Source: Candidatus Undinarchaeota archaeon
GTDB taxonomy: Archaea; SpSt-1190; JASMDC01
Assembly (NCBI GenBank): GCA_964519305.1
Contig: CAZFHY010000001.1
Span: 122,032-186,031 of the forward strand
Length of the DNA stretch: 64,000 bases
Direction: 5' to 3'
Part shown: piece by piece, positions 4,001-57,004 of the stretch
Layout: every line of letters begins with the position of its first letter
How positions within the stretch are numbered: the stretch's first letter is position 1
The notes under the pieces: generated by a model
Seen by the model: only the letters and a program-made list of their open reading frames with translations
Told to the model about the DNA's origin: nothing
Database searches by the model: none
Position numbers and translations under genes: made by a program

Positions 4001-5390
4001 GTTCCGGTGCGTGAACGGGGGCTGCACGATCCTTGAGAAAACACCCTGTAGTGACGAGCATCTTGTGTGCGATCCTGTCGTTGGGACGTGCGGACGATGT
4101 TCTGATGACGGTCCATGCCGCACCCTCATAGGCCCCCATGGACAGTGCTTCAAAGGCACCTGCCTTCCTGATTCGGACGAGGATGGTGTGCCAGATACCA
4201 TCGATCCCTGCCGCCTCGATCCCACCAACACCTGCACGATCCGGTGCGGGGACGAACTGTGTGACGATGGTGAGGACTGCGTCACCTGTCCCCAGGACTG
4301 TGGATGCGATGACGGCAACCACTGCACTAAGGACGTGTGCGATCCGGACGCCCGCATTTGCGCCAATACACCCCTTCCCTGTGGTAGCGGGTGCGGTGGG
4401 GGTAATGTGTGCGACGGACGCGGCGGGTGCGGTGAACCGGGTGGCGAAGCCGCCTCATGCGGCTGCACGGAAGTCTGTCGACGTGGCCTCATGTGCCTCC
4501 AAGGATCATGTATTGTAGCGACATGCGGTGACGGTAAATGCGAGAACGAATGTGGCGTCTGCCCAGAGGACTGCCCACCGTCAACGTGTGCCGGGGACGG
4601 GACGTGCGATCCTACGACCGGCGAGGACTGTCTCACATCAGCCGACTGCGCCTGCACGACAGGGGACCTGTGCGATCCGAGATCCCCTCTCGCTGACGTC
4701 AACGGATGTGTTGGCGGATGCGGGGACGGGCGGTGCCATCCCGATGAGTGCGCCTTCTGCGCAAAGGACTGCTCCGTGTCCGACTGCAGCGGGAATGGTG
4801 TCTGTGACACGGCCATCGGTGAGAGCTGTACCACCAGCAACGAGGACTGCGTGTGCCATGCCGACGTGAACGTGACGTCCGAGGTCGAGTCCGAAGCAGG
4901 TACGTGGACATCCATACCCATTCAGGTCCATAACGACGGGACGCTCGCGGACCGCTTCGTCATCATGGTCAGCACGTCGCTCGATAGCAAATGGGAGCGC
5001 GTGGAGACCTCTGAGATGGAACCGAACGCCACCCAGTTCCTCACGCTCGAGGTACAGGTCCCGGAGAAGGCAGGTCGTCATCCCGTCCGGATCCGTATCA
5101 CGCCCAAGAGCGACCCATCAAGTGAGGTCGAGCGCACGGTGATGGTCGAATCGGCGGTCAAGGGATGGCTCGAACGGACCCTGGAGGGCACGATCCTTGG
5201 CTGGGTCCTGGACATAAAGGACCTCCTTGAACTTGTGTTCATCATCGTGTCGCTGGCCGGAGCAGTCGTACTTGCCTTCCGCAAGCGCGGTCAGCTGGCG
5301 CGTTCGGCCCAGACTGGTGCCCCGGCGGTCTACAACCAGCCACAGTCCATGTACAACAATATGCGGTACTATGGACCGTACTACCGGTGA
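1092..5390 (+). CDS. Giant Cys-rich cell-surface protein (CGDG-type repeats, thrombospondin type-3-like Ca-binding motifs, C-terminal Ig-like domain, TM anchor, Tyr-rich tail)
   Basis: 1432-aa ORF with a signal peptide. Repeats such as CGDGTCDAEENCRLCPPDCGC, plus DEDDDGIIDSRDP and DSDEDGVPDTIDPC. TM LVFIIVSLAGAVVLAF is followed by RKR and a Y/N/Q tail. Confidence 0.85.
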   Translation: MEARAVVMALCLALVTVSALDVAPSCTGAFTDSGPLDKGAASTTVGALAAYAHQKCAQRAIEGCCYFVVGSVPDGFDHCAVASNGYICDTDGDPCYHVNQVVDGGHPKCCQDLTSQTAHGSFVAFSLESVAPFSSVSLRLTATCSPGTSTVCEAGPSVALATCTSSSCDDSSMDDCSPRPAVTFTASGEILTADISADVLDTLAAGSTSLGLRLTAPATTHTFSWPTDTLCTEVYYEDKGRCDVVDGTKHTGVQLIGDGAPALIIDRSCTNGRDCGPGDTWECILSQGITGQCGECSDNPGAPCTTREGANGFCCGSVCAPVPFIWADASGDGRPPGEVCGSSTCSGTIDCSNAAWVCSSTGNTCCKEDAVRSCSTAGVCDAEVTTECAPYLCTNGSCATTCVDDDGCANGYACIEGACRQRCSSTLTCAGNPCVDTNSDAKLDACMPCASGGQRCGLPDGGSGFCCGGSCKVPPFNVDKSVGVLSADVGCGTGQCAGKALCTEDWLCDTKGTGCCTDDRQGACTSAGSCETKTDCNPFRCDGNSCATSCTDYKGCTTGCCAGKVCVAFGSVSEGDPCLEGCQCATGLCDKGVCRTAPTCIRADECESGLCVEGVCRDTCGPDGATCRTLSGVGNCCAGSCLAAPTGLSPDGACGAGNCTGTVICRGTWICSSNSTACCSTSDAGSSAAGSCSSLGECLPSEVCLPGCDGVLFLVRGCSAGACTPVKQEVCTGRCTSEGCVGCLETTDCPPTECEGTVLVTRSCVDTTCIEEEADCGADGLVCTPDGCTGCKGDTACTELYGEGYACHLPSGTCRLAVCRSDDECPGTCANNTFVPGQCHDLVCVQGEPVPCTLGEVCSLQGCTACTHRVNCSIAYGLGRSCVAGRCVDLCGDGTCDAEENCRLCPPDCGCPTEIMCDPLATQGDTAGCVGDEDDDGIIDSRDPRPRDGDNICARNQDCQPACYTNVLYQFRCVNGGCTILEKTPCSDEHLVCDPVVGTCGRCSDDGPCRTLIGPHGQCFKGTCLPDSDEDGVPDTIDPCRLDPTNTCTIRCGDELCDDGEDCVTCPQDCGCDDGNHCTKDVCDPDARICANTPLPCGSGCGGGNVCDGRGGCGEPGGEAASCGCTEVCRRGLMCLQGSCIVATCGDGKCENECGVCPEDCPPSTCAGDGTCDPTTGEDCLTSADCACTTGDLCDPRSPLADVNGCVGGCGDGRCHPDECAFCAKDCSVSDCSGNGVCDTAIGESCTTSNEDCVCHADVNVTSEVESEAGTWTSIPIQVHNDGTLADRFVIMVSTSLDSKWERVETSEMEPNATQFLTLEVQVPEKAGRHPVRIRITPKSDPSSEVERTVMVESAVKGWLERTLEGTILGWVLDIKDLLELVFIIVSLAGAVVLAFRKRGQLARSAQTGAPAVYNQPQSMYNNMRYYGPYYR

Positions 5391-5400
5391 TGGAGCGGTT

Positions 5401-6120
5401 TCAGGCCTGGCCTTCCCAGCCACCCTGACCTGCGGCCGGGTAATGGTTCCGGTAGTAGTAGTAGGATAGTCCCTCGTACCCGCCATCGTAGTATGTCGTC
5501 ACGGGCACTGGGGCTTGCTGTTGTTCGGTGGATCCCCCCGTGCGGACCACGGACAGCGCCGCCAGTACGAGAGCCAGGGCGACCAGTCCTGCGAACACCA
5601 TGGTCCGACGGTCCGTGTAACCCTTCGAGCGGACCACGAGCGGTTGCTGTGGTTTCGTGGCGACCGGTGTCGCGGCGGGCGAGTCCTCCACCAGATCGAG
5701 GGGGACGCACTCAGAGTCGGGGCAGACGGACGTGACCTTGATCGTCCCCGTGGTCTTCACCGCAACGGACGTGTCCTTGATGGCAGCAGTGATCGTGTAC
5801 TCGAGCGGGCCGCTCTTGTCCTTGGGCACACGGAACGGGAGCTTGAGCACCTCGGTGGTGCGCATACCAAGGTTGTAGTGCTTTGCGTCCTTGAATAGCG
5901 CGGCGCCCTGCCCCTGGAGATCCAGCTCCAATAAGGCCGAGCTTGTGAGGTAGTTGGTAATCACGACGTTGACAACGCCCCTCCCACCAGCACATGTCGG
6001 GACGGATTCGTCCACGAGCTCCACACCGATCGTCTTTAGACCGAGGCCCGAGGGTACGCAGAGCAGTGCAAGGACGAGTGCGATCGTGCACTGACCGGTG
6101 ACGGACCTGCGGATGGCCAC
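5401..6120 (-). CDS. Small surface protein: signal peptide, one Ig-like domain, TM anchor, Tyr/Gly-rich tail
   Basis: Start placed at GTG 6120, just downstream of a TTTTAAAA TATA-like box at about 6142-6151. Hydrophobic N-terminus, a beta-rich domain, TM MVFAGLVALALVLAALSVV and tail YYDGGYEGLSYYYYRNHYP. Confidence 0.7.
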   Translation of the reverse strand: MAIRRSVTGQCTIALVLALLCVPSGLGLKTIGVELVDESVPTCAGGRGVVNVVITNYLTSSALLELDLQGQGAALFKDAKHYNLGMRTTEVLKLPFRVPKDKSGPLEYTITAAIKDTSVAVKTTGTIKVTSVCPDSECVPLDLVEDSPAATPVATKPQQPLVVRSKGYTDRRTMVFAGLVALALVLAALSVVRTGGSTEQQQAPVPVTTYYDGGYEGLSYYYYRNHYPAAGQGGWEGQA

Positions 6121-6171
6121 GATGCCTTGATACCGGTGGGATTTTAAAAAAGTATCCGCGGGGCCGAGCAA

Positions 6172-7002
6172 TCACTCATCGGCACGGTGGACCATGAACA
6201 CTTCAGGTCCTCCGTTGAAGAGATAGGGTGCGGGATGGACATAGAACTGGACCTCGGCCACTGTTGCCGGCCCGAAGCCCTCGACGTACCGCTCCACAGC
6301 GCCGATAGCAGAGCCATTGAACCGGAAGTCGTCCACGACAAGGACGTTCCGGCCGGCGAACCGCTTGATGTGCTCATCCGCCTGGGGCGGGGCAATGACC
6401 TCACGGTCCATGCGGGTCTGTGACGAGTAGCGCACGGCCTCCACATCGAAACCGGAGTATCCCATGGCCTCGAGCTCCTCGCACACGATACCGGCTGGTT
6501 CCACGCCTCCTGACTCCACTGCCAGCACCAAAAGGTCGTCGGTATATGATGGGTCCCGAGCGACCTCGCGCTCGATGTGCGCGCGGACCTTCTGGCGGAA
6601 GGCATCCTCCCATCTGTCCCGGAAAGGCAGGTCGTCCAGTGTCCGTCGGGTCACGGGCACGTCGCTCACGGCCGCGGTTAGCTCGTCCTTATGTCCGTCG
6701 AGCGTGTTCTGTAGTGAATCCAGGTAGGTCGAATCGCCCGTATGAGCGTAAGCAACGGCGTCCTGGGCAGCATCGAGTGTCAGATGGATACGCTCGTAGG
6801 CGTTCTCCACCTCCTCAGGAGCGGCCATCATACCGTGGTAGTGCTGGGCATAAGCATCGAAGACCACCTGGTTGAGGTACATGGCCAGTTGTCTGACCTC
6901 GGTCCGGTTCCCGGGATTGTGTTCGAGCTCATTGTAGAGGCGATCAACGACCTGAGCTCCATCCGTCACGCCATAAAGCGGTTCCGGTCGGTCCTCGAGC
7001 AC
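6172..7002 (-). CDS. Type I phosphoribosyltransferase-like domain protein
   Basis: LAVESGG and VLVVDDFRFNGSA resemble PRTase/PRPP-binding motifs. There is a helical N-terminal extension. Confidence 0.6.
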   Translation of the reverse strand: MLEDRPEPLYGVTDGAQVVDRLYNELEHNPGNRTEVRQLAMYLNQVVFDAYAQHYHGMMAAPEEVENAYERIHLTLDAAQDAVAYAHTGDSTYLDSLQNTLDGHKDELTAAVSDVPVTRRTLDDLPFRDRWEDAFRQKVRAHIEREVARDPSYTDDLLVLAVESGGVEPAGIVCEELEAMGYSGFDVEAVRYSSQTRMDREVIAPPQADEHIKRFAGRNVLVVDDFRFNGSAIGAVERYVEGFGPATVAEVQFYVHPAPYLFNGGPEVFMVHRADE

Positions 7003-7053
7003 AGGAGGGCGGGCACGGCAGGGGGTACTTATAGTTTTCCCGGAGGTAGGCCG

Positions 7054-8091: not shown

Positions 8092-8092
8092 C

Positions 8093-8803: not shown

Positions 8804-8852
8804 GGATTGACCGGGCCCGTAAATGCTTATTAATCCTCTTGTGATGTCGCGG

Positions 8853-11699
8853 TCAGCCACCGTTCTGGCGCGGCCCCCGGCCTTCCTGCGAGCCTCGCCA
8901 CTCGGGTGCATGATACCAATTGCTACGACCAGCGGCGGCGTTCTGACCGGGAGCGCTTGCAGGATAGTACCCGGCTGTGTGCTGGTAAGTCGTGCGGCCC
9001 GTCGTGCCCTCTGTCGATGGGACTGTCTTGGCCACTCCATGTGAACTGCGTGCTAACGCAACGGAACCGGCGATCACTACCAGTAGGACCACACCGATGA
9101 AGATGCTCAGCCAGTTGATGGCACTGTCTGCACCACCGAGCCCGCCGATCCGCACCTCGGGTCGCGGATTCAGTTCCTTGCACCGCCATCCCGGGAGCTT
9201 GACGAAGGTTATCTTCATGTCGCTCATGGCAGCGTTGTCCACCTGCTTCTTCACCGAGAAGGCGAGGTCCACCTTCTTCTTCCCCTTGAGACGGTCAACG
9301 CTCCACAGTACGACAGGGTCCTCAACTACAACCTTCACGTCCTGCTTGAACGTGAGGCCCTTCACGCTCTCGGCGAAGGTCTTGGGTATTACCTGCACTA
9401 TACAGAAGTCCTCCTGGTCCTCTTCTTTTGTGTTCTCCACCGTTAGCTTCACCATGGTCGCTGTGGCCGCCTCTCCATCCGTCAACTCGCTGCCCTCCGA
9501 GTCGACCTGGACCACCTGACCGGTCACGCTCACGTCCATGACGGTACGGATGTTCTTCGAGGTCTCGAGCGCGTTCTCGGTCAGCTCCTCGGCGTCACCT
9601 CCGAACAGCTTCGAAAGATCGAACAGCTCCATTACGGCCGGGATGGCCACTGCCTCCGACTCCTGCTGAGGTACGAACTCGTGACGTGTAAGCGTGGTCA
9701 CGCCCGTGTCGTCGTTCCGTACCGCATCGACCTCGTCCCTGATGCGGCCGATGGTCTCCCGGGCACCGGCGAGGTCCCCGTCCCCCAGCGACCGCCACGC
9801 GGCCTGCACCAGCCCATCGAGGTCAGGAGGTCGCTCTCCCTTGAGCGCCATCAGCACGAGCATCTTATCCTGGAACACAGGAGAGGTCAGGAGCCTTTCG
9901 AGCTCTAGCAGGTCGGCGCAGTTGTCGTTACACTCCACGGGCATCCCCGTGCACACCGCTGCGCATCCCGCCTCCTTGGCCATATCAGAGATTGCCGCTG
10001 CCAGCGGATCAGATGGGACGCTCGCAGGAGCACCTCCTTGGTCGAGGGTCGATTCGTCCAGCGTCGGCCGAGGTCCTGGCGTGCTGGCCGGACCGTCCTC
10101 AGGTTCGTCTGGTGAGGGCCCCGTACCGTCATCGGGAGCATCGGTGGGTGCGGCCGTGGCGACGGTTGTGGGCACAGTGGTGGCGTACTGTGTCGGGACA
10201 GTGGTGGGAACTAGGGTCACATCACCGTCAGGGAGGGTCGTGGGCACAACGGTCGGGACCGTGGTTGGGACCAAGCTAGGGATGATGGTGGGGACCACGG
10301 TCGGGAGCGGAGTGGGGACCGGAGTAGGATTTGGGTCAGGTGTCGCTCCCGGTGAAGGGTCCGGGTACGGGTTCGGATCATCCTCCGGATCATCCTCCGG
10401 ATCGGGTTCGGGTGTGGTTTCTGGGATGGTGGTCGCTGCCGGAGGCGTACCCTCGGGCTCCTCCTCGGGAAGGATCGTGACGTTGGGGAGCGGAAGAGGT
10501 GTCGGCTCGGCCATGTCATCGGGATCGGGTGTAGGTGTAGCAATCTCCAGAGGGCCTGCCCGGGGCCAGAACTCCACGTGGTAGAGGTCCGAGTGCCCGC
10601 GTGACGTTCCCTGCCAGACTATGTGCACTTTCCCCCGGTACGTGACGGCGATGGATGGGTTCGAGTCCTCTCCCTCGGCATCGCTCACCTGCTGTACGTC
10701 CCAGGTCCGGCCCAGATTGCTGGAGAAACCGTACACAATCTCGGAGGACATGCTCGTCCTGTGCTCGGCGGTCAGGAGCACACGCTTTTTCCCGGATGTG
10801 ACGATCGAAGGACGGGACAGCTCCATCCCAGCTACTGCGTTCATCTCCCAGGTCGCACCACTGTTGCTTGAGCGGGCGATGTTGACCGTGATAGGACAGT
10901 AGGTCGCATTGCATGCAGGGTCCATCCCCTCCCAGGCCACGTACACGTCGTTACCGCGCACGGCTATGTCGGGATTCGTCTGACGCAAGGTGTCGGCGGT
11001 GATGTTGTGCAGGTCCCAGCTCAGCCCATTATCCTCAGAGACCGCGTGCAGGATGTCAACATCGATGCCCTCGTGTCGTTGCCAAGCCACGTGAAGGCGC
11101 CCGTTAGTTGTCACGCCCACCACTGGATTGCTATCGTCCGAGACCACTGTCGAGACCGCGCCTTGTGTCCAGGTCCGCCCCTTGTCCCAGGAGCTCGCCA
11201 CCATGATGTCCCGTGCCCCCTCGGGCCCACGCTCCCAGGTCATGTGTACATCGCCGTTCGAGCGGACGAAGAGGGCAGGATTGACATCGAGCTCAGGCCC
11301 GTCGGTCACCCTCGTCACCGCCCAAGACTTCCCACCATCCGTGGAACGACCATGGAATATGTCGAATCCCTCATCCTGGACCTGGTACCATGCAACATGG
11401 ATGGCCCATTTATGATGGTCGACGGCATGACGCGGGCCCAGCCCACAGGCGCTACCCCCTCCAGTCACCCTATGGGTCCGCCATTTCTTGGAGCGGAAGT
11501 CCTTGACGTACACGTTGAAGGTGTCGTCCCAGTCGGTGAACCAAGCGATCGTACGTTTGTGCTTGGAGTGATCTATGTTGATGATGGGGAAGAGATTGGC
11601 CCCCGCGTTGGAGGTGAGCCGGACAATCTTGCCGTCCTTGGCAGATCCCAGGAGGAGGAGCAAGACCATAACCAGGACGAGTTGTCGTGTGCTCACCAT
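8853..11699 (-). CDS. Surface protein: BNR/Asp-box (sialidase-like) beta-propeller, Pro/Thr-rich stalk, C-terminal TM, Tyr/Gly/Gln tail
   Basis: Signal peptide and repeated SxDxGxTW Asp-boxes (STDGGKSW, SWDKGRTW, SEDNGLSW, SSNSGATW, SSNLGRTW). PTxx repeats form the stalk. TM WLSIFIGVVLLVVIAGSVAL. Confidence 0.85.
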   Translation of the reverse strand: MVSTRQLVLVMVLLLLLGSAKDGKIVRLTSNAGANLFPIINIDHSKHKRTIAWFTDWDDTFNVYVKDFRSKKWRTHRVTGGGSACGLGPRHAVDHHKWAIHVAWYQVQDEGFDIFHGRSTDGGKSWAVTRVTDGPELDVNPALFVRSNGDVHMTWERGPEGARDIMVASSWDKGRTWTQGAVSTVVSDDSNPVVGVTTNGRLHVAWQRHEGIDVDILHAVSEDNGLSWDLHNITADTLRQTNPDIAVRGNDVYVAWEGMDPACNATYCPITVNIARSSNSGATWEMNAVAGMELSRPSIVTSGKKRVLLTAEHRTSMSSEIVYGFSSNLGRTWDVQQVSDAEGEDSNPSIAVTYRGKVHIVWQGTSRGHSDLYHVEFWPRAGPLEIATPTPDPDDMAEPTPLPLPNVTILPEEEPEGTPPAATTIPETTPEPDPEDDPEDDPNPYPDPSPGATPDPNPTPVPTPLPTVVPTIIPSLVPTTVPTVVPTTLPDGDVTLVPTTVPTQYATTVPTTVATAAPTDAPDDGTGPSPDEPEDGPASTPGPRPTLDESTLDQGGAPASVPSDPLAAAISDMAKEAGCAAVCTGMPVECNDNCADLLELERLLTSPVFQDKMLVLMALKGERPPDLDGLVQAAWRSLGDGDLAGARETIGRIRDEVDAVRNDDTGVTTLTRHEFVPQQESEAVAIPAVMELFDLSKLFGGDAEELTENALETSKNIRTVMDVSVTGQVVQVDSEGSELTDGEAATATMVKLTVENTKEEDQEDFCIVQVIPKTFAESVKGLTFKQDVKVVVEDPVVLWSVDRLKGKKKVDLAFSVKKQVDNAAMSDMKITFVKLPGWRCKELNPRPEVRIGGLGGADSAINWLSIFIGVVLLVVIAGSVALARSSHGVAKTVPSTEGTTGRTTYQHTAGYYPASAPGQNAAAGRSNWYHAPEWRGSQEGRGPRQNGG
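10140..10540 (-). repeat. Low-complexity Pro/Thr/Asp/Glu coding repeats (PEDD x2, tandem PTxx units)
   Basis: 12-bp unit ggatcatcctcc duplicated at about 10375-10400. The protein reads PTPVPTPLPTVVPTIIPSLVPTTVPTVVPTTLP. Confidence 0.8.
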
Positions 11700-11784
11700 C
11701 TTATGTCCCGACCAGATTCTACAGATTACTCAATCTCTCGCCTGAGAGCTATTTATAGCTTAAGCTCTCCCCGGACTGCATCCG

Positions 11785-12668: not shown

Positions 12669-12694
12669 AGCACTCACCGAGAAGAAGCTCGCGG

Positions 12695-14403: not shown

Positions 14404-16860
14404 CTACCGGACGCTCGCCTCGAACTTCGCGCGGAAGTCCTTGTCCTGGCTGAACCGGGTTATGTAGTCCATGAACACCGGTAGGCTAAGGCTGCCCGGC
14501 TGCTGTTTGTGCCTGTAGTACAGGCTCTCCAGGAACTTCATCCGGACGTACCGCTCCCGTTCGTACTCCTGGTCGGTCATGTCCATGTTGTACTCGGCGA
14601 TACGTCTCTCCAGGGGCGAGAGGCCTTTCACCATGCGCACCACCTGCTTGGACTTGGTGTCGTACTTGTACACCTGCAGGAGCGGGGGGATGTCCAGTTC
14701 GGCGGGCTTGGACTTGTCGATCTCCACGATCTCGATGACGCGACGGAGCTGAACACGCTTGCGCTCCTTGGAGTCGTAGAACGAGAGTCGCCGCTGTACG
14801 AGGATGATGTCCAGGGTCTGGATATCCATGGGAGCGATGTTCATGGGAGGATTCTTCATGCGCTTGGCGGCCGACGTGGCGTCCAGTGCGTGGAACGTGC
14901 ACATACATCCGCGTGCCTGTCCGGCCAGCACCGAGTTGATGAAGGCCCGCGCCTCTTCGCCCGAACGCACCTCACCCACGATGACCCGGTCAGGCCGCAT
15001 ACGCAGAGTATCCTCCAGCAGGTCCTCCATCCCGATCTCGGCCTGGGGAACGGTGACGACCCGGGCCTGGTGGTTGTGGGGCAGGTTGATCTCGGGGGTT
15101 GACTCCAGAATGATGATGCGCTCGTCGGGCGGGATGAACGTCGAGATGGCATTGAGGGTGGTGGTCTTTCCCGAGCCGGTGTTTCCGCCGATGAGCATGG
15201 AGATCTCGTTCTCCAATGTCAGCCACATGTAGGTGAGCGCGTCGATCGACATGGTACCGAACTCGGCGATCTCGATGGGGGTGAGCGGGTTCGCCCGGAA
15301 CTTGCGGATGGTGATGAGCGAACCGGTCAGGGTCATGGGACTGATGCACGCATGGAGACGGGAGCCGTCGGGAAGCCGGGTGTTGACCCGAGGGTGCATA
15401 TCATCGATCTTTGCCCCCGGCTGGGATCGCACCATGCGCTCGATGATGGCCCGCACCTCCATCTGACCTCCCTTGTCGGGATTGAAGAAGATGTTGGTCT
15501 TGAGCATCCCGTACTTGCGGTGGTAGACGTAGATAGGCCGCGCCTGGCCCACACCGATACCCATTACCTCCTCCAGGGCGTCGTCCTTGAGCAGGAGGTC
15601 GAAGGGACCGAACCCCGTGGAGTTGAGGGTCGCGAGCATGGAGAGAGGGTCCAGCTTCTCCGGGTCCACGCCAGCACCCATGTACCGGGCCACCTCTAGG
15701 ATGAACGCTTTCATCTGTTCGTACGTGGACGTGTTGAGCGAACCCGACTCGATGAACCGGTCGATGGAGCGCTTGATGATGGTACGTTCCACATCAGAGA
15801 TCGAGGGTATGACGTTCACGTAGTACACGGGCTTGGGTTCGCTGGGGACCATGGCGATGGAACCGAAGGTACGGGCGGTGCCCTCGTCATTGATCACGAT
15901 TGGCTCGAGCTCACGGATCGACTGGGCAGGGAAGACCGACAGCGACCATGTACCCGTGTCGACGGCAGCGCTGACCTGCTCGGCATGGACGGCCTCGATG
16001 GCGTTGAAGCCCTGGTTGGCGCATTCCTCTAGACAGAGGGGATGGTCGGCGACGCCGTAGCAGATGTCGCACTTCCGGGCGATGTCCCCGAGCACCCAGA
16101 TGGAATCGTAGGGGCATGCTTTGACGCACTCGCCGCAGCCAGTACACCTGTCCTCCTGCACGCTGAGGATGTCCTTGCCCGGCCCCACGGGCACGATGGC
16201 CTTCTCGGGGCACGCCTTGGCACAGTCCGCGGTCTCGGGCGTACAATGCTTGCACATGATGGGTGCATTGTCGAATTTGATCGCCTGCTTGGGGCACACA
16301 GGGACGCACTTGGCGCATCGCGTGCATGAGTTGTAGTTGATCGCGATCTTTGAGGACATGGGTGCCGAGGTGTTGGCAATCTTTATATGGGGTGTGTTTT
16401 CGGGCAGTTCCGATGGTGGGGATTCATCCCCCTTGCCCTTCTTCTTCCCGGTCTTTGCCTTCTGCGTCTGTCCTTTCCCCTTCGCAGGAGGCGCTTCCTT
16501 CTTCGGCGGGGCAGGGCTAGGAGCAGGGGGCGGGGTCTTTTTCTTTGGAGGCACCTCCTTCGGCGGTGTCGGCTTCGGGACCGGAGGCGGGGATTCCTTC
16601 TTGGAGGGTGCATTCTTCGGCGGTGAGGGCTTGGGTGCGGGCGGAGTCGTCGCCTCCGGAGGCGGAGACTGTTCCTCCTTCTTGGGAGGTACCTTCTTCT
16701 TAGGAGTTGTCGGGATGGATACCCGTCGGGATTGTTTCTTTGTGCTGATGGCGTCGGGCATCCGTTCGATACGCTGGAGCTTGGCGCCCTTCGCGCCTGC
16801 AGGCAGCCGTGGTGGTGGTGGTGGAGGTGCCTTCTTCTTCCCCTTCTTTTCCGGGCTCAT
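14404..16860 (-). CDS. TadA/CpaF/VirB11-family secretion ATPase with N-terminal Pro/Lys-rich region and multi-[4Fe-4S] ferredoxin domain
   Basis: Walker A GNTGSGKTT, LRMRPDRVIVGEVR, TFHA, LPDGSRL and ITIRKF. Cys motifs CTRCAKCVPVCP, CKHC..C...CP, CTGCGECVKACP and CDIC......CLEEC lie in the same frame. Confidence 0.9.
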   Translation of the reverse strand: MSPEKKGKKKAPPPPPPRLPAGAKGAKLQRIERMPDAISTKKQSRRVSIPTTPKKKVPPKKEEQSPPPEATTPPAPKPSPPKNAPSKKESPPPVPKPTPPKEVPPKKKTPPPAPSPAPPKKEAPPAKGKGQTQKAKTGKKKGKGDESPPSELPENTPHIKIANTSAPMSSKIAINYNSCTRCAKCVPVCPKQAIKFDNAPIMCKHCTPETADCAKACPEKAIVPVGPGKDILSVQEDRCTGCGECVKACPYDSIWVLGDIARKCDICYGVADHPLCLEECANQGFNAIEAVHAEQVSAAVDTGTWSLSVFPAQSIRELEPIVINDEGTARTFGSIAMVPSEPKPVYYVNVIPSISDVERTIIKRSIDRFIESGSLNTSTYEQMKAFILEVARYMGAGVDPEKLDPLSMLATLNSTGFGPFDLLLKDDALEEVMGIGVGQARPIYVYHRKYGMLKTNIFFNPDKGGQMEVRAIIERMVRSQPGAKIDDMHPRVNTRLPDGSRLHACISPMTLTGSLITIRKFRANPLTPIEIAEFGTMSIDALTYMWLTLENEISMLIGGNTGSGKTTTLNAISTFIPPDERIIILESTPEINLPHNHQARVVTVPQAEIGMEDLLEDTLRMRPDRVIVGEVRSGEEARAFINSVLAGQARGCMCTFHALDATSAAKRMKNPPMNIAPMDIQTLDIILVQRRLSFYDSKERKRVQLRRVIEIVEIDKSKPAELDIPPLLQVYKYDTKSKQVVRMVKGLSPLERRIAEYNMDMTDQEYERERYVRMKFLESLYYRHKQQPGSLSLPVFMDYITRFSQDKDFRAKFEASVR

Positions 16861-46200: not shown

Positions 46201-48292
46201 ATATGGGAAGCCCCCGCCGGTCCCGCCGTGCCACGAAGTGACCGGGAAGGCAGGGCAGAGGACGGCTGTCAACCTGACGATCGAGCTCACACGGGAGGAC
46301 GCTGCGTCCCTCACTCTCAACGTCACGTCCATAAGCGATCCATTGCTCGAGCGATTGGCCGAGATCGCCGTGAAACCGGCGGACTTCTCCAAGTCCGCCA
46401 TCACCCTCACAGGATGCCGGAAGAATCAATGGAAGCTCATCTGCTCCTTCCAGGCCATCAATGGAGGGAACACGGAGAACACCTACCGTTATGCTGTGAT
46501 GCCGGACCTGATGGTCGGGGACCTCACCTACGAACAGTTCACCCTGGGCTCAAAACAATCCAAGGTCGTCGATGTCTCGGCCCTCCTGGTGGCGTGCGAC
46601 ATCAGCCTTGAAGCAAGGGCCAATCTCCTGGCACTGGGAACTGCTCATTTCATCGGTCGGACCTTTGCCAGCGAGGACGGCTATGCTCTCACGAGCGGGA
46701 TGGACGAGATGGCTGCTGCCTTCGACACCCTCGCGGGAGCTCATGAACTCCTAGGGCTCGATGACGCGACGCGGACCGCATTAATGAGCGCTGTCGATGC
46801 GTTCAAGAGCATGCCCAGTAAGGACACCGGGGACGCACTGGCCACGGTGGCGGCTGCGGCCAATGAGGCGTTCGTGGCCTCGCTCAAGACCACTTGCACA
46901 ATGAGCCATGCCAAGAAGATCTCCGCCAACATCATGGTCTGCGACACGCCCTTGAAGGTCCAGGACGAGTCGACCTTCACGTGCAACAGCAAGGCTTTTA
47001 CGCTAGAGGACGTAAAGTTCCCCTTCGACTGCGACGTCGAAGCCAATGAGGAACTGGAGAAGGTCCTCGAGGACGGCGAGACATACGGTGTGCTGATAGG
47101 TCAGGAGGCGAAGCTCCCTATCGTGGTGCGGAACCGGATGCATTTCGACCTGCTATTCGACTTCAGCGCGTCGGCGAGCTACGACCTTGAGAACGCTCTT
47201 CTGGAGGAATCCAAGGTGCTCATCACCTCCGATGAGGAGCACTTGTTCACCGTGACCATCAAGCTCGATGACGAGAGCGACCAGCGCCTTTATCTTAAGA
47301 CAACCCCGTCAGGGATGCCGAAACGGACCCAGGGTTTCGAGATCGAGCTCAGACCTGAATTGGATGTCAAGGTCAGCTTCGACGCAACGCCCCATTTGAC
47401 CACTTCCGATGTGGAGGCAACCCAGAGCATCGATCTCATTGTCGAGGTGCACAACACCGGTAATAGTAAGGAGACCTTCACTGCCACCCTGGATGGCCCC
47501 ATAGCAGATATGTCCTCAATCATCGACGATAAGATTGATCTCGCTCCCGGCGAATCATCGAACATCACCGTCGCCGTCACGACAGAGAAACGTGGGACTG
47601 TGAAGGGCACGCTGAAGGTCACGACGAAGAGCGATGAGTCGGTCGTCAAGGATGTCGATCTCTCTGTTACCGCCACTGCGCCCGAGATCATCGCGAAAGC
47701 TCCTGAGAGCCTCGATGGCACGGGCACCATCGTCGTGCGTAACGATGGTGAGATGGAGGGAGAGGTCGATGTGAGCATCACCGGGGACGCCTCGTCCTGC
47801 GTCAACCTCGTCAACAGCAGCGTTGTGGTAACAGCGGGCGGATCTGTGTCAGTTGCTTTGGAGAACGAGTGCGAGGAAGCAAGTGAGATTGAGGTCACGC
47901 TCGAGGGGGCGGGATTCTCTAAGACATTCACCCTCAAGGTGGCCGCCATGGCGACACCGGAACCCAGCGATGATATGCCTATCGACAATGGGTCCATCGA
48001 CGATGGGCCCACACCCGAGGCCCCCGAAGATGAGGAAGGCGGTATGGGGATGGGGCCGGTAATCATCGTAGGCGTTCTTCTCGTGATCGGGGGTGGTGTC
48101 GTTGTCATGAAGAAGAAGAAGGCCGCTACGGGCACCGGTGCTGCGGCGAAACCGGGTGCTGCGACTGCAGCCCAGAACATGCAGCAGGGACGACAGGGGG
48201 TGCAAGGCCAGCAGGCCGCCTATGGAGCTGCTGGTTATGGCGCCTACAACTCGAATTATATGAATAGGTATCCCTATTATGGGAGGCGGTAA
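43298..48292 (+). CDS. Giant vWA-domain surface protein with Ig-like array, TM anchor and Q/G/Y tail (paralog 1)
   Basis: Signal peptide, DAVFAIDHTGSM (MIDAS-like), ENSYDAI, VITDA and TGG.YF. Many NxT/S sequons. TM is followed by KKKK and a low-complexity tail. Confidence 0.88.
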   Translation: MRTPILVFLLVVCLASGAYHACWTESDCLSGTTESCVLEDGSCGVPALSVPVLETGLSWGEEKTFTIHVANNETFQRPIDAVFAIDHTGSMRDDLEEFRNTWAAITEVLKTKSEGNFRVALIPFANQFTHSFGPPKLPLPFQDFYADEYAADAAIQSGLAAIYDRVTGGEECRENSYDAIQYAVREKWASDWGSQLPENRWREQSLKLVYVITDAAVFTGMYASMRNLADEAKAKRIVVFGFTPDPDDPKYRSPCPPTCPRCTRSGSTCELLCSFVPNPEGDDIEVCESKCCSGNPSWLGVYTDKCEPDGGGSTVCADKTFRPGLLMENYQYCYDLINVTDDTGGTYFKSFDKAEMRFKITQAFEEVDFNHFKLKTRKVSGPGDLEISLPSPEQFNVEVCDVLFEWPDEAQDPPCKIRSNLKVKVPDGVLEGEYVYNVTLEADTGYTEELQIRVQVRTPVLATITYAATALYDRVLVFLNLTNTGIHKTLQPVTSMSSISCAGKDAKVFWGPGSDSVPPGESLTAVADCTGASMTSNGMSLRITEVSPLLLTGNLGEKVEIMANITNLAGSTLLYLDNAHFFTLTLNGAPLSGKDVVYLNGPKLYRIVGSLPAGAAIDGYNVLEVSISESGSSASDFALLRKGTPSLKVSSHLQLGLSSTEVLTAPDTTRTVSTAADPLVLGDSSLFTHTDFSLGGLSRKTGPELVVNHTLKRGFIMLRSKRKDDGTVTVPYNRTGALPATITRTVTLPYLMEHDLDLIGFSDGAIGASRLDPATNVLFGSMALPDASIDTLREGWYGPVFGVRLDYENYTLYRPGMLPFMFSSPEPIPSITVDIAAPLVNRTLTLEPGKGGIDEDTLFANATVQPNGGVVLEVHVGVAEEGTVRVNVSTDMRNEVIITVPYAEIEPFILDAPSSISAVPNLTTEFSLGISNHRPDDDTFRVCAKGDGVKVFAGDTELTSVPEDTGSRYGKPPPVPPCHEVTGKAGQRTAVNLTIELTREDAASLTLNVTSISDPLLERLAEIAVKPADFSKSAITLTGCRKNQWKLICSFQAINGGNTENTYRYAVMPDLMVGDLTYEQFTLGSKQSKVVDVSALLVACDISLEARANLLALGTAHFIGRTFASEDGYALTSGMDEMAAAFDTLAGAHELLGLDDATRTALMSAVDAFKSMPSKDTGDALATVAAAANEAFVASLKTTCTMSHAKKISANIMVCDTPLKVQDESTFTCNSKAFTLEDVKFPFDCDVEANEELEKVLEDGETYGVLIGQEAKLPIVVRNRMHFDLLFDFSASASYDLENALLEESKVLITSDEEHLFTVTIKLDDESDQRLYLKTTPSGMPKRTQGFEIELRPELDVKVSFDATPHLTTSDVEATQSIDLIVEVHNTGNSKETFTATLDGPIADMSSIIDDKIDLAPGESSNITVAVTTEKRGTVKGTLKVTTKSDESVVKDVDLSVTATAPEIIAKAPESLDGTGTIVVRNDGEMEGEVDVSITGDASSCVNLVNSSVVVTAGGSVSVALENECEEASEIEVTLEGAGFSKTFTLKVAAMATPEPSDDMPIDNGSIDDGPTPEAPEDEEGGMGMGPVIIVGVLLVIGGGVVVMKKKKAATGTGAAAKPGAATAAQNMQQGRQGVQGQQAAYGAAGYGAYNSNYMNRYPYYGRR

Positions 48293-51200: not shown

Positions 51201-53331
51201 CTATCGTGTGTGTGGCACGGCCACCGGTGTCAAGGCCTGGGTGAACGGGATCGAGGTGACCGGCCAGCCTGACAAGCAAGGGAGCGCACCTTGCCACTCG
51301 GTCACTGTCGACGGTGGGGCCACCGCCACGCTCAACGTCACAGTCCGGTTGGAGACCGAGACGGGGGGCGATCTCATCCTCAACGTAACCTCGGAAACGG
51401 ACGAACGTTTGAGCCGTGTCGCCAAGGTATCCCTCCTCCCGTCGTTCTTCACAAGCTCTCACATACAGCTCAAGGAGTGCGTCAAGAACGAATGGGATAT
51501 GAGCTGCAACTTCGAGTTCATCAACGGCGGGAACGTTCGCAATACATATCGATATGGTTTCGCAGGGGACATTCTCCTTGTGACCCCTCCATTCTCGTCC
51601 GTTGACGTTGACGCCAAGGCCTCGTCCAACAAGTACCTGAAGGCACGCATCATCGGGTGCTCGCTCGACCTCGATCTGAAGAACTACATCACATCCATAG
51701 GAAAGTTGTTCTTCCTGGCCAAGCTTTTCGCCGACGGCGGTAACTTCACATCAGGAGGGCCGCTGGCCAGTTTCTTCACCGAGGCGGATCTGCTGGCCAC
51801 ACGGGTGGAGGATATGGGGGTCCCCACTGAATCGGCTCGGTTGAAGGGCGCCATCGAAGCGTTCCGGACCTCCCCCGATGCCACGACCGGTGCAACTCTT
51901 GCCGAGGCAGTGGAAGCGCTCTATACTGCTTTCTTCGAAGCCCATCGGAAGACGTGCCGGCTCAGCCGGGCAACGAGTATCGAGGTTACTGCATATGCTT
52001 GTGACACGCCCATGCAGCTCGACGATGAGTTGCGGTACGCGTGCGTGAACCGCACGTTCGAGGTGACAGATATCCTCATCGACCTCGATTATGAGCTCAA
52101 ACCGGATCCCGATCTCTCCTCAATACTACAGAAGACCGGAGCGCTCCACGTGCTCGCGGGCCAGGAAGTTTCCTTCGACATGATCATACGCAACAACCTC
52201 CACTTCCCGCTCCTCTTCGACTTCATCGCATCAGAGGGGTACTCCGAGGTCGCGCTGGCAGAGGAGAGCGAAGTGCTCATCGAGGAGGACAGCCAGCATG
52301 TGTTCTCCGTACCCATCTCCTGGTCAACGCCCGACCGGTACATGGTACACGTCAAGGCCCTCCCCACGGGCTACACCGAGCAGCAGCGCAAGGTGCCGGT
52401 CCCCGTGGAGGTCGACATCGAGGAGGTGCTCGACATGGAACTGGAGGTCCATACGGGCGATGTCTCCCTTGCTGCAGGGGAAACGGTCGAACTCGTGGCC
52501 ACTCTTACAAACAAGGGAAACGGTAAGGCAACATTCATCGTATCCGTTGACGGGGATACGAACGTATTCTCACCACCGGGCGTCAGCCACCCACTACTTG
52601 ACGCAGGTGCGTCGATCAACATCACCATAAAGGCAACGGCACCCAAGGAGCGGGGCGTCCAGACGGCCACCTTATCGGTGACCCATGGGATCAAGGACGA
52701 CCTTGTACGAACGGCCAAGTTCTCCGTCACCGTGAGCGCACCCGAGTTCTCCCTCAGCGTACCAGAGACGCTAGGCGAGAACAGTACTATCAGGATCGAT
52801 AACCTCGGTGATGCGGACGGTACCATCGCGCTCACACTCAATAATAATGCCGCGGCCTGCGTGATGCTCTCCAACTCGAGCGTCGAGGTCCCTGCCGGCG
52901 GATTCGTAGAGATAGGTATAACCAGCGAATGCGCCGAATTAGAGAGCCTCGAACTCCTTGTCGAAGGGGCCAACTATGATAAGGTCCATCCGATCGCGCT
53001 CGAGCCACCAACTACCACCATGGAGCCTACCATGGAAGCAACACCTGAAGCAACACCTGAACCGACGCCCGAGCCCGAGAGCGGTGGCTTGGGCGCTGGT
53101 GGCGCCATCATCATTATCGTGTTGATCGGCGGAGGAGCCGTCATTGCTCATAAGAAAGGGCTTATCGGTGGTGCCAAGACCAAGCCCCCCACCAAGGGAA
53201 TGACACGGATGACCGGTGCTGCAGGACAGCCTGGGATGACGGGTACAGGCGGATATCGCGGAGCACAGCAAGGTTGGAACCAGCAGGGATCTATGTACGG
53301 GAACCGTGGACAATATCCGCAGCGCCGGTGA
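48295..53331 (+). CDS. Giant vWA-domain surface protein with Ig-like array, TM anchor and Q/G/Y tail (paralog 2)
   Basis: DVVFVTDFTASM, CRENSYDAI and TTDAAVFTG. Colinear similarity to 43298..48292 throughout. Confidence 0.88.
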   Translation: MGDGITNRSRTNELKGCLSGLLFLVLILVTVPAAGERSYMCYTDIHCDLGLCLDDWNSCVSPFLARNETMLDLYWEDTSEVGVLTFNRGGRAKSIDVVFVTDFTASMADDLEQFITDWDSIVYNMGSKVNNKLRVAMIPFQDELVRKLPGPTGDPIDVLTTFKDFETDTDVNIQYFKDRLQVLKDRAETVGGGGDCRENSYDAIRYTIEEDWGRDYEFGALPGVCDNGACAWRPDALKIIFVTTDAAVFTGRYNEMELLANAASAAGVIVFGLTPNPSEGGAKSPCPPTCPPCTSTGNECGLTCTGEGAARLCESTCCSGDPSWKGNTGDTCDDTVPDPKDCSGMAWAPDTEREAYRYCYDLINITKDTKGKYFDGFSLGTLSQKINLALDSIDYNLITLSLAGPNEVHTGILNTITGRPEPTTTVMLQAHTGEQCIEVIEGVPCKSLRRVEVTVPEGTPVGWYNYTLTISSDTGDSETLDLDVAVKAPVNVDVDYAPYVLDGRLLAFVNITNKSPIAAAVPDRERTEISCDSVKAGLLWEAGIDAIPPGGSTIVVADCLGAARSSNGYQLIIEELSPEAIADRDPERINVTFMLLDSKGDPVPFMENAYLYSITFNGKDMGDKGIVYDVVKGRYKLTVDVPAGTAKDGFNVLKVAVDDAGKTASDARFVRWGNDRLELSSFIPFGDDPRQQVDQASSRKLKDVRRPTLDIGLRSLFLHQTFVRGDIVKRAGPQLIVNYTTERGFMLFQGFERSTGIMDVVVNKTGLLPGTVIRTYEREFVEDHAFYIAIREGDEIGGSRLMPAQMVTYGILDRASVGIQRPEEGWQGDTYVVGHHYNNLSLHHSEDVTFIFSVPENVTTVAVNVSSPALSGPRQIILDKQGYSEEGLFVNRTTDLAHGSLVTVHVRAKDAGILWVNLTTGNRDLFFIKVPFRITEPFRISAPENMTVVPNKTGEFAFRLNNLMFEQDSYRVCGTATGVKAWVNGIEVTGQPDKQGSAPCHSVTVDGGATATLNVTVRLETETGGDLILNVTSETDERLSRVAKVSLLPSFFTSSHIQLKECVKNEWDMSCNFEFINGGNVRNTYRYGFAGDILLVTPPFSSVDVDAKASSNKYLKARIIGCSLDLDLKNYITSIGKLFFLAKLFADGGNFTSGGPLASFFTEADLLATRVEDMGVPTESARLKGAIEAFRTSPDATTGATLAEAVEALYTAFFEAHRKTCRLSRATSIEVTAYACDTPMQLDDELRYACVNRTFEVTDILIDLDYELKPDPDLSSILQKTGALHVLAGQEVSFDMIIRNNLHFPLLFDFIASEGYSEVALAEESEVLIEEDSQHVFSVPISWSTPDRYMVHVKALPTGYTEQQRKVPVPVEVDIEEVLDMELEVHTGDVSLAAGETVELVATLTNKGNGKATFIVSVDGDTNVFSPPGVSHPLLDAGASINITIKATAPKERGVQTATLSVTHGIKDDLVRTAKFSVTVSAPEFSLSVPETLGENSTIRIDNLGDADGTIALTLNNNAAACVMLSNSSVEVPAGGFVEIGITSECAELESLELLVEGANYDKVHPIALEPPTTTMEPTMEATPEATPEPTPEPESGGLGAGGAIIIIVLIGGGAVIAHKKGLIGGAKTKPPTKGMTRMTGAAGQPGMTGTGGYRGAQQGWNQQGSMYGNRGQYPQRR

Positions 53332-53374
53332 CCATACTAAGACATAAATAGCACACAGGCGTTATAGTCCTCTT

Positions 53375-56300: not shown

Positions 56301-57004
56301 TCCTCCGGCCTAACATCGTGGTCGACATCCCCCCCAAGCTCGAGAAGGGCTCGGTCATCAAGATCAAGAACAATGGGACTGCACCTGCCACATTCAAGCT
56401 CACCCTAGACGGCGAACTGAAGAACTGCCTCTCCATCAAGGACAAGGAGTACACCGTCGAGGACGGCAAGGAGATCGAGCTCGCAGTGGATTTCCGCTGT
56501 AAGGTCTCCGAGATGGACGACAAGAACAAGAAGCTCACACTGGGTATCGATGGAGGAAAGCAGCTGAGCTTCAACAAGGTGACCCGTGTGGTCACGCGGA
56601 CCCTGGACGACATCGACACAGGAACAGGCCAGCCCGCCTCCACGCCAGAGCCCACTGCGACGCCCGCTCCGACAGTTGCCACGACCCCGGAGCCGACTGA
56701 GGGCACCGGTGACGATGACTTCGGTGAGGACCCCTATGCTACGCCCGAGGCCACTCCCGATCCAGAGGTCTCAGGTACAAAGACCGAGGGCGGTTCGTCC
56801 GCCATGCTCTATGCCATCGCTGCGTTGGGCGTTATATTGCTCATCGCCGGGGGCGGTGTGGCTTTCATGATGCAAAAGGAAGCCGCGCGCAAGGCCGCCA
56901 TGAAGGCCAATCTGCAGAAGGCCATGACGTCCTACAGTGGAGGTCAACAGCAGAGCGGTTACGGCCAGCAGCAGAAGCAGTGGGGCAGCGGCGGTTACCA
57001 GTAG
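53375..57004 (+). CDS. Large surface protein with Ig-like array, TM anchor and Q/G/Y tail (partial paralog lacking vWA)
   Basis: Signal peptide. The C-terminal two-thirds parallel the two upstream proteins (I.AP..I.VVP, F.N.GN...Y, NTGN..DTY). TPEP linker, TM and tail SYSGGQQQSGYGQQQKQWGSGGYQ. Confidence 0.85.
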   Translation: MSPAYRALITIIALFSALVPITMAELSIGDVEVVDAHGKYFLFFTITTDTSPVSLYPFFQDGIVSSGGCTPGDQHRVLFKDSILQSGGSTTAAVYCPGALDGQANFTFTYHNYTSEPPELTITDPIQVDFTIDDLTRLDLMETESIECAVGKEARDLPVSVGRRVELGVGDERNVAYYVTNMLADGFYPLLVKYSFKFLEFDESEGKIRIEGNNTEVVNFTFDCADGLDTKKKIGNITAYHRDIDCASENDASTAVLWVGYNNEDTIIVDNDMASGEYYTHMEFPAQSWRFSFHRNENAIQAIETKCMLFKDTVIYALVRNATHLSYQEGKPLVDVSQLSKLSGKLTSASREVIDGRLVYRYTSNYTHVKYGEDPQPISALPKWYVEKEVLIKREINGQIQDMVRQVPTEWDLDFLAHGISGEGVVSWNFSSAEYGVEYNITTVYLVITPVDIYAPDTIEVVPVQNNTVAFTLRNNMVEGDIRLCAKASAGWNALVRKEEINLPCQNITVAKGDEAETQVLFWSDGVETGTVKIEVYNTRDDLLVGTKGVDVGAARFKKFNIGTYSCAAVGPPAGELAEANCDLSFRNEGNLAELVYYSVIVDTITPAFSMNQVQLSKYSERTTNHTAIMYGCDLTDGEKKLLAHLDKSLFFSQLATMVTGEVSELAGSYTVAFGTTKGLLININQTAYDALRTSLTTMLATPTLGNAKELTATITDYKFVLISHLMGKCELAPTNTVNATLMVCSEDPTSGCSERTITMSPFKFTPSFNITNTHPKLYLRPGDKASAIVSLTNEQGFPIRFKLSSNDACSKFIGTIDKETVPMEVYSISLNITAASDQSDECTFIVTAHPVGIPDSALSTELELVITKEDHIGMKMSATSGLSGVPGETVEFFVNVSNTGNVEDTYDIVIDGTGDTVLGSPITRSLKAAAYQPLVIPFTMGLPDNAAGTYTLLATVTSQAKPSEITESQPINIEILRPNIVVDIPPKLEKGSVIKIKNNGTAPATFKLTLDGELKNCLSIKDKEYTVEDGKEIELAVDFRCKVSEMDDKNKKLTLGIDGGKQLSFNKVTRVVTRTLDDIDTGTGQPASTPEPTATPAPTVATTPEPTEGTGDDDFGEDPYATPEATPDPEVSGTKTEGGSSAMLYAIAALGVILLIAGGGVAFMMQKEAARKAAMKANLQKAMTSYSGGQQQSGYGQQQKQWGSGGYQ

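Follow-up and report, generated by a model that had tools for sequence, protein, structure and literature searches.

A phylum-specific class of tyrosine- and glutamine-rich, predicted cytoplasmic tails on single-pass envelope proteins of Candidatus Undinarchaeota

A stretch of 64,000 nucleotides from a Candidatus Undinarchaeota archaeon (assembly GCA_964519305.1, contig CAZFHY010000001.1, positions 122,032 to 186,031; hereafter the window, C1:122032-186031 of genome G000) encodes six surface proteins, P0001 to P0006, in which a single C-terminal transmembrane (TM) helix is followed by a low-complexity tail rich in Tyr, Gln and Gly. These tails belong to a phylum-specific class of tails, predicted to be cytoplasmic and disordered, on single-pass type-I envelope proteins. 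The class is real, is confined to membrane proteins and is wider than the six open reading frames (ORFs) of the window, since 34 proteins with post-TM tails and nine with a similar N-terminal segment ahead of the TM were detected genome-wide. Its members share one layout, consisting of a signal peptide, a varied ectodomain, one TM, a K/R patch, an Ala/Pro/Gly spacer of about 10-15 residues and a Tyr/Gln/Gly/Pro-rich low-complexity stretch, often with a terminal Arg. They can be regarded as a variant of the prion-like low-complexity domain, tethered in these archaea to the membrane and predicted to face the cytoplasm.

The genome has a size of 3.63 Mb in 42 contigs (completeness 99.8%, contamination 4.3%), and aIF2-gamma and aIF5B-type genes are present in the window. 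Genes were called as greedy longest ORFs (2995 genes covering 92% of the genome), a crude method by which all counts are approximate. TM segments were called with a 19-residue Kyte-Doolittle window, and topology was based on hydropathy and charge counts, which is likewise crude.

Extent of the tail class in the genome

A Q+Y fraction of at least 0.2 was found in 24 of 153 type-I tails, compared with 3 of 155 multipass tails and 3 of 1353 C-termini without a predicted TM. Each of the six window tails was also ranked against 2398 C-termini of the genome at equal length. Their Y+G+Q+N fraction was 0.36-0.51, corresponding to ranks 10-31 of 2398 (top 0.4-1.3%). For Q+Y alone they ranked 18-40, except P0003, the weakest of the six (106/2398 for QY and 31/2398 for YGQN). 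By these ranks and the class comparison the tails are enriched over the genome background, as the interpretation of an earlier note on this DNA requires.

The proteome was further scanned in 25-aa segments scored for Q+Y. A score of at least 8 was reached by 65 proteins and a score of at least 10 by 34, and in all of the latter a TM adjoins the scored segment (26 post-TM C-terminal tails, two after the last TM and six N-terminal segments ahead of the TM). The listing threshold of 8 gave 36 C-terminal tails and nine N-terminal heads; two tails (C11:8128 and C6:57294) were dropped by eye, leaving the set of 34 tails used below. Since this set was chosen by Q/Y content, its raw composition figures are circular, while the shuffle, class-comparison and orthologue tests are not. 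Q/Y-rich low-complexity regions were not seen in the soluble proteins of this genome, in which those regions were P/A-, K-, E- or RG/RD-rich. Among strictly defined type-I proteins of at least 300 aa, 19 of 84 passed the tail threshold and about six more fell just below it. The carriers range from small proteins (129-260 aa) to one of 4130 aa.

Some members have additional features. The giant Cys-rich paralogues encoded by C6:40292-47788 (2498 aa) and C11:61164-73556 (4130 aa) have extended tails of 125-133 aa, in which the Q/Y part is followed by repeated GLHPG motifs and the end is GFHP or SFHP; these motifs are kept in the sister species. A short motif, (Q/E)GY(T/P/E)xE(Q/E)(I/V)...L...GY, helical by eye, adjoins TM helices in the tails of C2:170536-173424 and C22:10582-14052 and in the heads of C6:102107-104184 and C15:93580-94779, and no Pfam family was found for the proteins with this motif that were tested. 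The 192-aa protein of C4:10256-10834 shows a weak, sub-threshold match to the N-terminal region of archaeal flagellins and pilins at residues 92-158, preceded by an 88-aa Q/Y-rich leader and a KKK patch, which is far longer than the usual class III signal peptides.

Composition and motifs of the tails

Compared with the proteome, the 34 tails are enriched in Gln (7.5x), Tyr (4.0x), Pro (1.7x) and Gly (1.6x). Depleted residues include Phe (0.25x), Asp (0.4x), the aliphatics (Leu and Ile 0.16x; also Val), Glu, Lys, Cys and His. The earlier description as Tyr/Gly/Gln/Asn tails was right for Gln, Tyr and Gly, to which Pro can be added, but not for Asn (0.78x). Gln, Gly and Tyr account for 18.6%, 13.8% and 10.9% of tail residues, respectively, and Y:W:F is 235:34:18. 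The tails are 23-133 aa long, most of them 23-72 aa (median about 55), and 15 of the 34 have at least 60 aa.

Motifs were tested against 500 within-tail shuffles in which the composition was held constant. SYY occurred 10 times (1.2 expected), YYG 17 times (3.9 expected) and YY 47 times (28.3 expected), and none of the 500 shuffles reached any of these counts; a YY doublet is present in 25/34 tails. QWG (8 vs 1.0 expected), QQQ (67 vs 24.8 expected) and QQ runs were also above expectation, and Arg was located within the last three residues of 15/34 tails, compared with 4.8 in the shuffles. Directly behind the helix, a stretch of 10 residues is rich in K/R/A/P. Aromatic residues begin at a median distance of 14 residues from the helix, and Tyr represents 12-17% of residues at tail positions 10-45. 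The GC3 was 0.70 in the tails and 0.71 in the rest of the genes, and the choice of Gln and Tyr codons likewise matched. The tails had been regarded as similar in composition but not in sequence. Motif order and spacing indeed vary; however, the tails of P0004, P0005 and their homologue P0009 align with an invariant C-terminal Y..R..Y..RR, and SYY, YYG and terminal Arg are over-represented in the set.

Conservation and distribution among relatives

All six window tails are kept in the sister species of the same genus (G001, 3.8 Mb). Tail identity was 49-91% vs 80-91% for the rest of the protein, and was lower than the rest in five of the six pairs and higher in P0004. Across the two genomes, the tail is kept in 17/17 orthologue pairs checked, with an overall tail identity of 79%, confirming that the tails are present in orthologues. 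Tyr was the most conserved tail residue in these pairs (107/114, 94%). Together, Tyr and Trp were kept at 123 of 133 positions vs 763 of 989 for non-aromatic residues (Fisher p 1.3e-5 for Y+W vs all other residues). P0009, a P0004-family homologue from another assembly with only 25% identity, also has a Q/Y-rich tail, and in a five-sequence alignment of this family (P0004, P0005, their orthologues and P0009) Y1654, R1657, Y1660, R1663 and R1664 were invariant. A YGPxY motif is common to P0001 and its homologue in G003, a genome of another family.

The distribution was analyzed further in 20-kb samples around surface-protein genes; relatives compared in this way are kin and not independent samples, and the outgroup sampling is thin. 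Y/Q/P-rich tails, often ending in RRR, RRKR or RRP, were detected in G003, G002 and G009, which represent three other families of the same phylum. The samples of G005 had no tail and those of G004 had a SHOCT-like tail. In the 20-kb samples of five more distant archaea no Q/Y tails were found, and the proteins had K/E-rich tails or none. G003 (1.19 Mb) was also rebuilt from its loci and run through the same pipeline. Tyr-rich tails were present on every one of its six largest type-I proteins (873-2681 aa), and a Q+Y of at least 0.2 was found in 3/33 type-I tails, 0/44 multipass tails and 0/600 C-termini without a TM. Pieces of 396 kb from two outgroup archaea gave 0/15 and 0/10 type-I Q/Y tails, a small control in which one outgroup had a lower GC content. 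The 30 loci with CARDB domains from other archaea gave no Q/Y tail, but only about three had a plausible C-terminal anchor, so their power as a control is too low. Thus, the earlier suggestion of a lineage-wide trait is in agreement with the genomes of four families of the phylum, and the trait was not seen in the limited stretches of other archaea.

Homology searches contributed less. The homologues listed were four for P0004 (query included) and seven for the BNR domain of P0003 (window protein included), too few for wide mapping of the tails; two distant BNR homologues with a C-terminal TM had short, basic, non-Q/Y tails. A single 65-aa tail (C19:53175) used as a HMMER query against 17 genomes of the phylum retrieved nothing except itself and its orthologue, so that even the other tails of G000 were missed. 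Because a homology search with a single tail cannot trace the class, it was traced by composition scans. ESM Atlas look-alikes of the TM and tail of P0004 were dropped, as their scores (0.79-0.81) were at chance level.

The family of G000 comprises two species with genomes of 3.6 and 3.8 Mb, while the other 15 genomes of the class or phylum in the collection have 0.6-1.2 Mb. G000 is therefore a large-genome relative of an otherwise genome-reduced, DPANN-type group. According to a paper on DPANN archaea of oxygen-deficient zones (PMC10936187), metagenome-assembled genomes of about 4 Mb were assigned to 'SpSt-1190'; they may belong to the present lineage.

Membrane side

The charge distribution around the helix supports the cytoplasmic location of the tails. 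In 36 proteins, K+R numbered 106 in the 12 aa after the TM vs 50 before it, and D+E numbered 45 after vs 82 before. More K/R after the helix was found in 28 of the 36 proteins, fewer in four and equal numbers in four. The tail of C9:109207 runs into a CxxC...CxxC zinc ribbon. Furthermore, several proteins with the same layout of signal peptide and TM carry a winged-helix (wHTH) domain after the TM; this domain must be cytoplasmic. Together, the charges, the zinc ribbon and the winged-helix domains place the Q/Y tails in the cytoplasm. The cytoplasmic topology proposed earlier was thus upheld as a prediction. The N-terminal heads are less clear, as a basic patch is found on the head side in only two of them and the others are neutral or acidic. 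A cytoplasmic location of the heads is nevertheless hinted at by the small GY(T/P)xEQ(I/V) helical motif, which was recognized by eye both in heads and in the tail of one type-I protein.

The winged-helix proteins form a family of about 330 aa with a signal peptide, an ectodomain, one TM and a predicted cytoplasmic winged-helix tail (motif FSKSKLSR). Members are located at C2:76923-77915, C9:22475-23467, C11:74848-75813, C3:140239-141318, C20:67311-68309 and C21:26817-27806. Among four of these genes for which neighbours were listed, three are inside clusters of genes for large surface proteins and two of these three adjoin Q/Y-tail genes. They may encode membrane-bound regulators of surface-protein clusters.

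The six proteins of the window

The six proteins have in common an N-terminal hydrophobic segment, an ectodomain, one C-terminal TM, a K/R patch and a tail, which is 33, 41, 59, 57, 54 and 41 aa long in P0001 to P0006, respectively. Translation of the six ORFs gave the same C-termini as those quoted in the earlier note.

P0001 (1092..5390, + strand) is a 1432-aa Cys-rich surface protein without a Pfam or NCBIfam family. Its TM anchor with an I-K-D-x-x-E-L motif is located at about 5190-5288, as obtained from the anchor-module alignment, and is followed by the predicted cytoplasmic tail GQLARSAQTGAPAVYNQPQSMYNNMRYYGPYYR (5289-5387), of which 22/33 residues are identical in the orthologue of the sister species. 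P0002 (5401..6171, - strand) is a small single-pass protein of about 240-256 aa with a beta-sandwich ectodomain, without a Pfam match. Its TM is at about 5527-5610 and its 41-aa tail, with YY, GY and YYYY, at 5404-5526. The start near 6120 given earlier is the more likely one, because the orthologue starts at that point. An AF2 model of P0002, calculated from an alignment of two sequences (mean pLDDT 55), predicted strands at residues 48-146 (pLDDT about 70-77), a helix at 188-211 and a tail (212-256) without secondary structure (pLDDT 34-39). P0003 (8853..11699, - strand) is a 948-aa BNR/sialidase-like beta-propeller protein (PF13088, BNR_2, 48.8 bits, cut-off 31.4) with a Pro/Thr-rich stalk, a TM at about 9033-9119 and a 59-aa tail at 8856-9032, which has 48/59 identical residues in the sister species.

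The remaining three proteins are all encoded on the + strand. P0004 (43298..48292) is a VWA-like/Ig-like surface protein of 1664 aa, with homologues P0007 and P0009; a Gly-rich TM (48032-48118) precedes its 57-aa tail (48119-48289), which ends in NRYPYYGRR and is identical at 52/57 positions in the sister species. P0005 (48295..53331, 1678 aa) is its paralogue, with 33% identity to the P0004 lineage, a TM at 53077-53166 and a 54-aa tail at 53167-53328 that ends in NRGQYPQRR (42/54 identical). P0006 (53375..57004, 1209 aa) is a more distant paralogue, with 21% identity over 835 aa to the P0004 orthologue (E 7e-40). Its TM is located at 56789-56878 and its 41-aa tail (TSYSGGQQQSGYGQQQKQWGSGGYQ) at 56879-57001, with 33/41 identical residues and a 5-aa GYGQQ indel in the sister species.

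The earlier note counted six surface proteins of different architecture. The ectodomains do differ, but because P0004, P0005 and P0006 are paralogous, the six proteins represent four independent lineages. As for the domain types named there, BNR_2 in P0003 was above the cut-off, while the Ig-like and VWA matches in P0004-P0006 were sub-threshold in Pfam; the sister orthologue has a precomputed PF00092.

Elsewhere in the window, an 818-aa ORF (14404-16860, - strand) combines two 4Fe-4S ferredoxin-type cluster motifs (residues about 203-254) with a type II/IV secretion ATPase domain (476-693). Such a fusion is unusual for a pilus or archaellum-type ATPase.

Anchor module adjoining the tails

Ten proteins of the genome, including P0001, share a C-terminal anchor composed of the last Ig-like strand, a short stalk and a near-invariant hydrophobic-K-[DE]-x-x-E motif. 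The motif, with near-invariant Lys and Glu, is located at the start (outer edge) of a short TM helix. Examples are found at window positions 5190-5288 (P0001) and at C11:61551-61787, C6:40655-40897 and C3:188850-189077. A profile of the module detected 10 copies in G000, 10 in G001, two in G003, one in G002 and a weak one in G008, and no copies in 64 other archaeal genomes. Searched against 1.84 billion representative proteins, it gave 28 matches, of which 13 covered the full module; all 13 continue into a Y/Q-rich tail and come from kin of G000, G001 and G003. Because selection by the profile is blind to tail composition, this gives modest independent support that anchor and tail travel together. 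The charged residues in the anchor helix suggest a partner within the membrane.

Sorting signals and archaeosortase

The PGF-CTERM model (TIGR04126) gave no match in the whole genome, while the control genomes of Haloferax and Methanosarcina did match, and on the six C-termini no match was found at E up to 1. The absence of PGF-CTERM from the six proteins, as noted earlier, was thus verified. NCBIfam and Pfam searches of the six proteins and of their C-terminal 120 aa gave no sorting-signal family above the cut-off, and other CTERM models matched only below threshold, on the TM. None of the LPXTG/LAETG anchor models was above its cut-off on the six proteins; the best was TIGR01167 (15.7 vs 15.9 bits), on the TM of P0004 without an LPXTG motif. 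A single gene of the archaeosortase family was detected in G000 (C8:91949-92884, L192:5950-6885; TIGR04178, 70.2 bits). It scored 40.1 with the ArtA model (cut-off 75) and was below the cut-off of every other subtype. Members of this family were detected in 16 of the 17 phylum genomes, even in those of 0.6 Mb. In a separate set of G000 surface proteins the helix is followed by no more than a few basic residues, and some of these proteins have an APGxG-like motif. This set fits the canonical archaeosortase signal better than the long-tailed proteins and could represent candidate substrates.

Possible functions of the tails

The reading we favour, tentatively and as somewhat short of probable, is that the tails act as multivalent Tyr/Arg stickers which cluster envelope proteins. 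Contacts would be formed by Tyr-Tyr and Tyr-Arg pairs, with Gln and Gly as spacers. Tethered in two dimensions under the membrane, the tails of different proteins would associate with each other. Adhesin-like envelope proteins would thereby be brought together in patches or in a mesh at the cortex, and would be held more firmly against extraction from the membrane. This reading is based on the restriction of the tails to membrane proteins, their sticker-like composition and multivalent Tyr motifs (YY, YYG, SYY, terminal Arg), together with selection on Tyr, the cytoplasmic side and the predicted disorder. It is also based on a codon usage equal to that of the rest of the gene, the presence across the phylum and the precedent of synaptophysin. 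Several points weigh against it. The tails are short (median about 55 aa) and their Tyr residues clustered, while well-studied phase-separating domains have evenly spaced Tyr. The positional conservation (Y..R..Y..RR, YGPxY) could equally mark a motif binding one partner, and residues at membrane interfaces show the same preference of Tyr and Trp over Phe. Moreover, the tail is limited to roughly a quarter to a third of the type-I proteins of the genome. The tail set was selected by Q/Y, on Kyte-Doolittle TM calls and greedy longest ORFs, and the association itself is inferred here from sequences. An RG/RD-rich protein adjoining a Q/Y-tail mini-gene was considered as an Arg-rich partner and rejected as a coincidence, since by eye its sequence is fibrillarin, followed by Nop5.

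A wider form of the sticker reading is doubtful. According to it, the prion-like tails would be a 'cortical glue' used across an Undinarchaeota-like phylum, in which one member has a genome of 3.6 Mb, a size typical of free-living cells. Tyr/Arg stickers would join dozens of envelope proteins that are otherwise unrelated, and the resulting assembly would be a condensate or amyloid-like mesh in two dimensions. Such a mesh would organise attachment sites and anchor giant adhesins, and would represent a prokaryotic counterpart, of independent origin, of eukaryotic membrane-associated condensates.

Alternatively, the tails might carry short linear motifs, with a (S)YY(G/A)-x-R-Y core and a C-terminal Arg or Arg-Arg, that are read by one conserved cytoplasmic adaptor which sorts, localises, quality-controls or turns over envelope proteins, the Q/G remainder being a flexible tether. 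We consider this possible but unlikely. It would account for the enrichment of SYY, YYG and terminal Arg beyond composition, for the invariance of Y..R..Y..RR among P0004, P0005, their orthologues and the 25%-identical P0009, for the RRR, RRKR or RRP ends in relatives, and for a Tyr cluster held on a spacer a median of 14 residues from the TM. However, a candidate adaptor was not found, and the number, order and spacing of the motifs differ widely among tails. Moreover, 19 of the 34 tails have no terminal Arg and nine have no YY, and the single-tail HMMER query recovered only itself and its orthologue.

A mechanical or biogenesis role is rather less likely. Here Tyr/Trp/Arg segments lying on the cytoplasmic membrane interface, or mere length after the stop-transfer helix, would keep large ectodomains from pulling the helix out. 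Interfacial aromatic belts favour Tyr and Trp over Phe, and the tails likewise are enriched in Tyr and Trp and depleted in Phe; the carriers include very large proteins (up to 4130 aa), and a tail of some kind is common, given the K/E-rich ones of 36-50 aa on the surface proteins of other archaea. Yet many type-I proteins of the genome have tails of only 0-14 aa, indicating that length is not required, and proteins of 129-260 aa carry the tail as well. Gln/Gly-rich stretches are not membrane-active, and other tails of the same genome are strongly charged, indicating that the Q/Y make-up is a choice specific to the class.

It is improbable that the tails are functionless disordered sequence expanded neutrally by replication slippage of CAG/TAC-rich DNA. 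Runs of QQ and QQQ do exceed the shuffles (QQQ 67 vs 24.8), a GYGQQ indel separates the P0006 orthologues, and the tails are less conserved than the rest of the protein (49-91% vs 80-91%, lower in five of six window pairs). Against this, only segments next to a TM have the composition, Tyr is conserved more than any other residue of the tails, and the trait persists across families of the phylum with very different genome sizes. Finally, it is very improbable that the single archaeosortase of the phylum recognizes the C-terminal region as its sorting signal and that TM and tail are cut off, since the one TIGR04178 gene, the occurrence of the family in 16/17 genomes and the phylum-restricted hydrophobic-K-[DE]-x-x-E at the outer TM edge of 10 proteins are set against 23-133 conserved residues after the helix, unlike known signals, a 94% retention of Tyr not expected of a discarded tail, the short-basic-end class that could supply the substrates, the absence of PGF-CTERM and the sub-threshold scores of other CTERM models.

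If self-association of the tails through stickers is true, it would be the first lineage-wide archaeal case in which envelope proteins are organised from within the cytoplasm by a low-complexity sticker domain. It would also make testable how very large adhesins are held and clustered by wall-less, DPANN-related cells. Even without a mechanism, the rule of composition plus topology is a marker for the surface proteome of the phylum. It separates two anchor classes, one with a long Q/Y tail and one with a short basic end, the latter of which may be processed by archaeosortase.

Comparison with known systems

A description of such tails was found neither by full-text search of the literature nor in the accessible part of the Undinarchaeota paper (PMC7414124). 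The nearest known systems resemble them in part. Like the tails, the PGF-CTERM, archaeosortase and exosortase signals are a C-terminal module, composed of a motif, a TM and basic residues, that recurs within one lineage on numerous surface proteins with no other relationship. In the known exosortase and archaeosortase signals the helix is followed by no more than a few basic residues, whereas the present tails have a long conserved stretch (23-133 aa) after the basic patch, and cleavage is not expected.

FUS-family low-complexity domains, to which the tails had been likened, also have Tyr far above Phe, G/S/Q spacers and few charges, and [G/S]Y[G/S]-like runs occur in the tails of P0006 (SYSGGQQQSGYGQQ) and C19:53175 (GYGYQQYGAQGGYQGQ). 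The FUS-family domains and the yeast Sup35 N domain are soluble, 100-200 aa long and have evenly spaced Tyr. The present tails, in contrast, are membrane-tethered, 23-133 aa long and have clustered YY and a basic C-terminus. Thus, the 34 tails agree with the FUS type in their Tyr-dominated, low-charge composition with G/S/Q spacers, and the analogy holds in this respect; it does not hold for patterning, as the aromatic residues are not evenly spaced (YY 47 vs 28.3), nor for size (most 23-72 aa).

The synaptophysin tail, which has Tyr/Gly/Gln pentapeptide repeats, is likewise the cytoplasmic C-terminal tail of a membrane protein. According to a recent report, it drives co-condensation with the intrinsically disordered region of synapsin, a disordered Arg-rich partner, and clusters membranes or proteins (bioRxiv 10.1101/2024.08.03.606464). 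Synaptophysin is, however, a single family of eukaryotic four-pass vesicle proteins with synapsin as its partner, while here dozens of unrelated single-pass archaeal proteins carry the tail.

The tails can also be compared with prion-like domains. The default core of PLAAC has about 60 residues or more. In the 34 tails Gln is enriched (7.5x), Asp (0.4x) and Leu/Ile (0.16x) are depleted and Asn is at 0.78x; 15/34 reach 60 aa, and all six window tails are shorter. In the available part of a survey of archaeal candidate prion domains, 'integral component of membrane' represented about 58-70% of the GO terms (Zajkowski et al., bioRxiv 10.1101/2020.07.20.212902). These domains and the present tails are both Q-rich, low-charge and of low complexity, but the survey used PLAAC with Q/N-rich cores of ~60 aa, while in the present tails Asn is not enriched, Tyr is conserved and most are <60 aa. 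A position after the TM, type-I topology, common motifs and a pattern across a lineage are not mentioned in that part of the survey. The present finding refines the published remark on archaeal prion-like membrane candidates by adding a position, a topology and a conserved residue.

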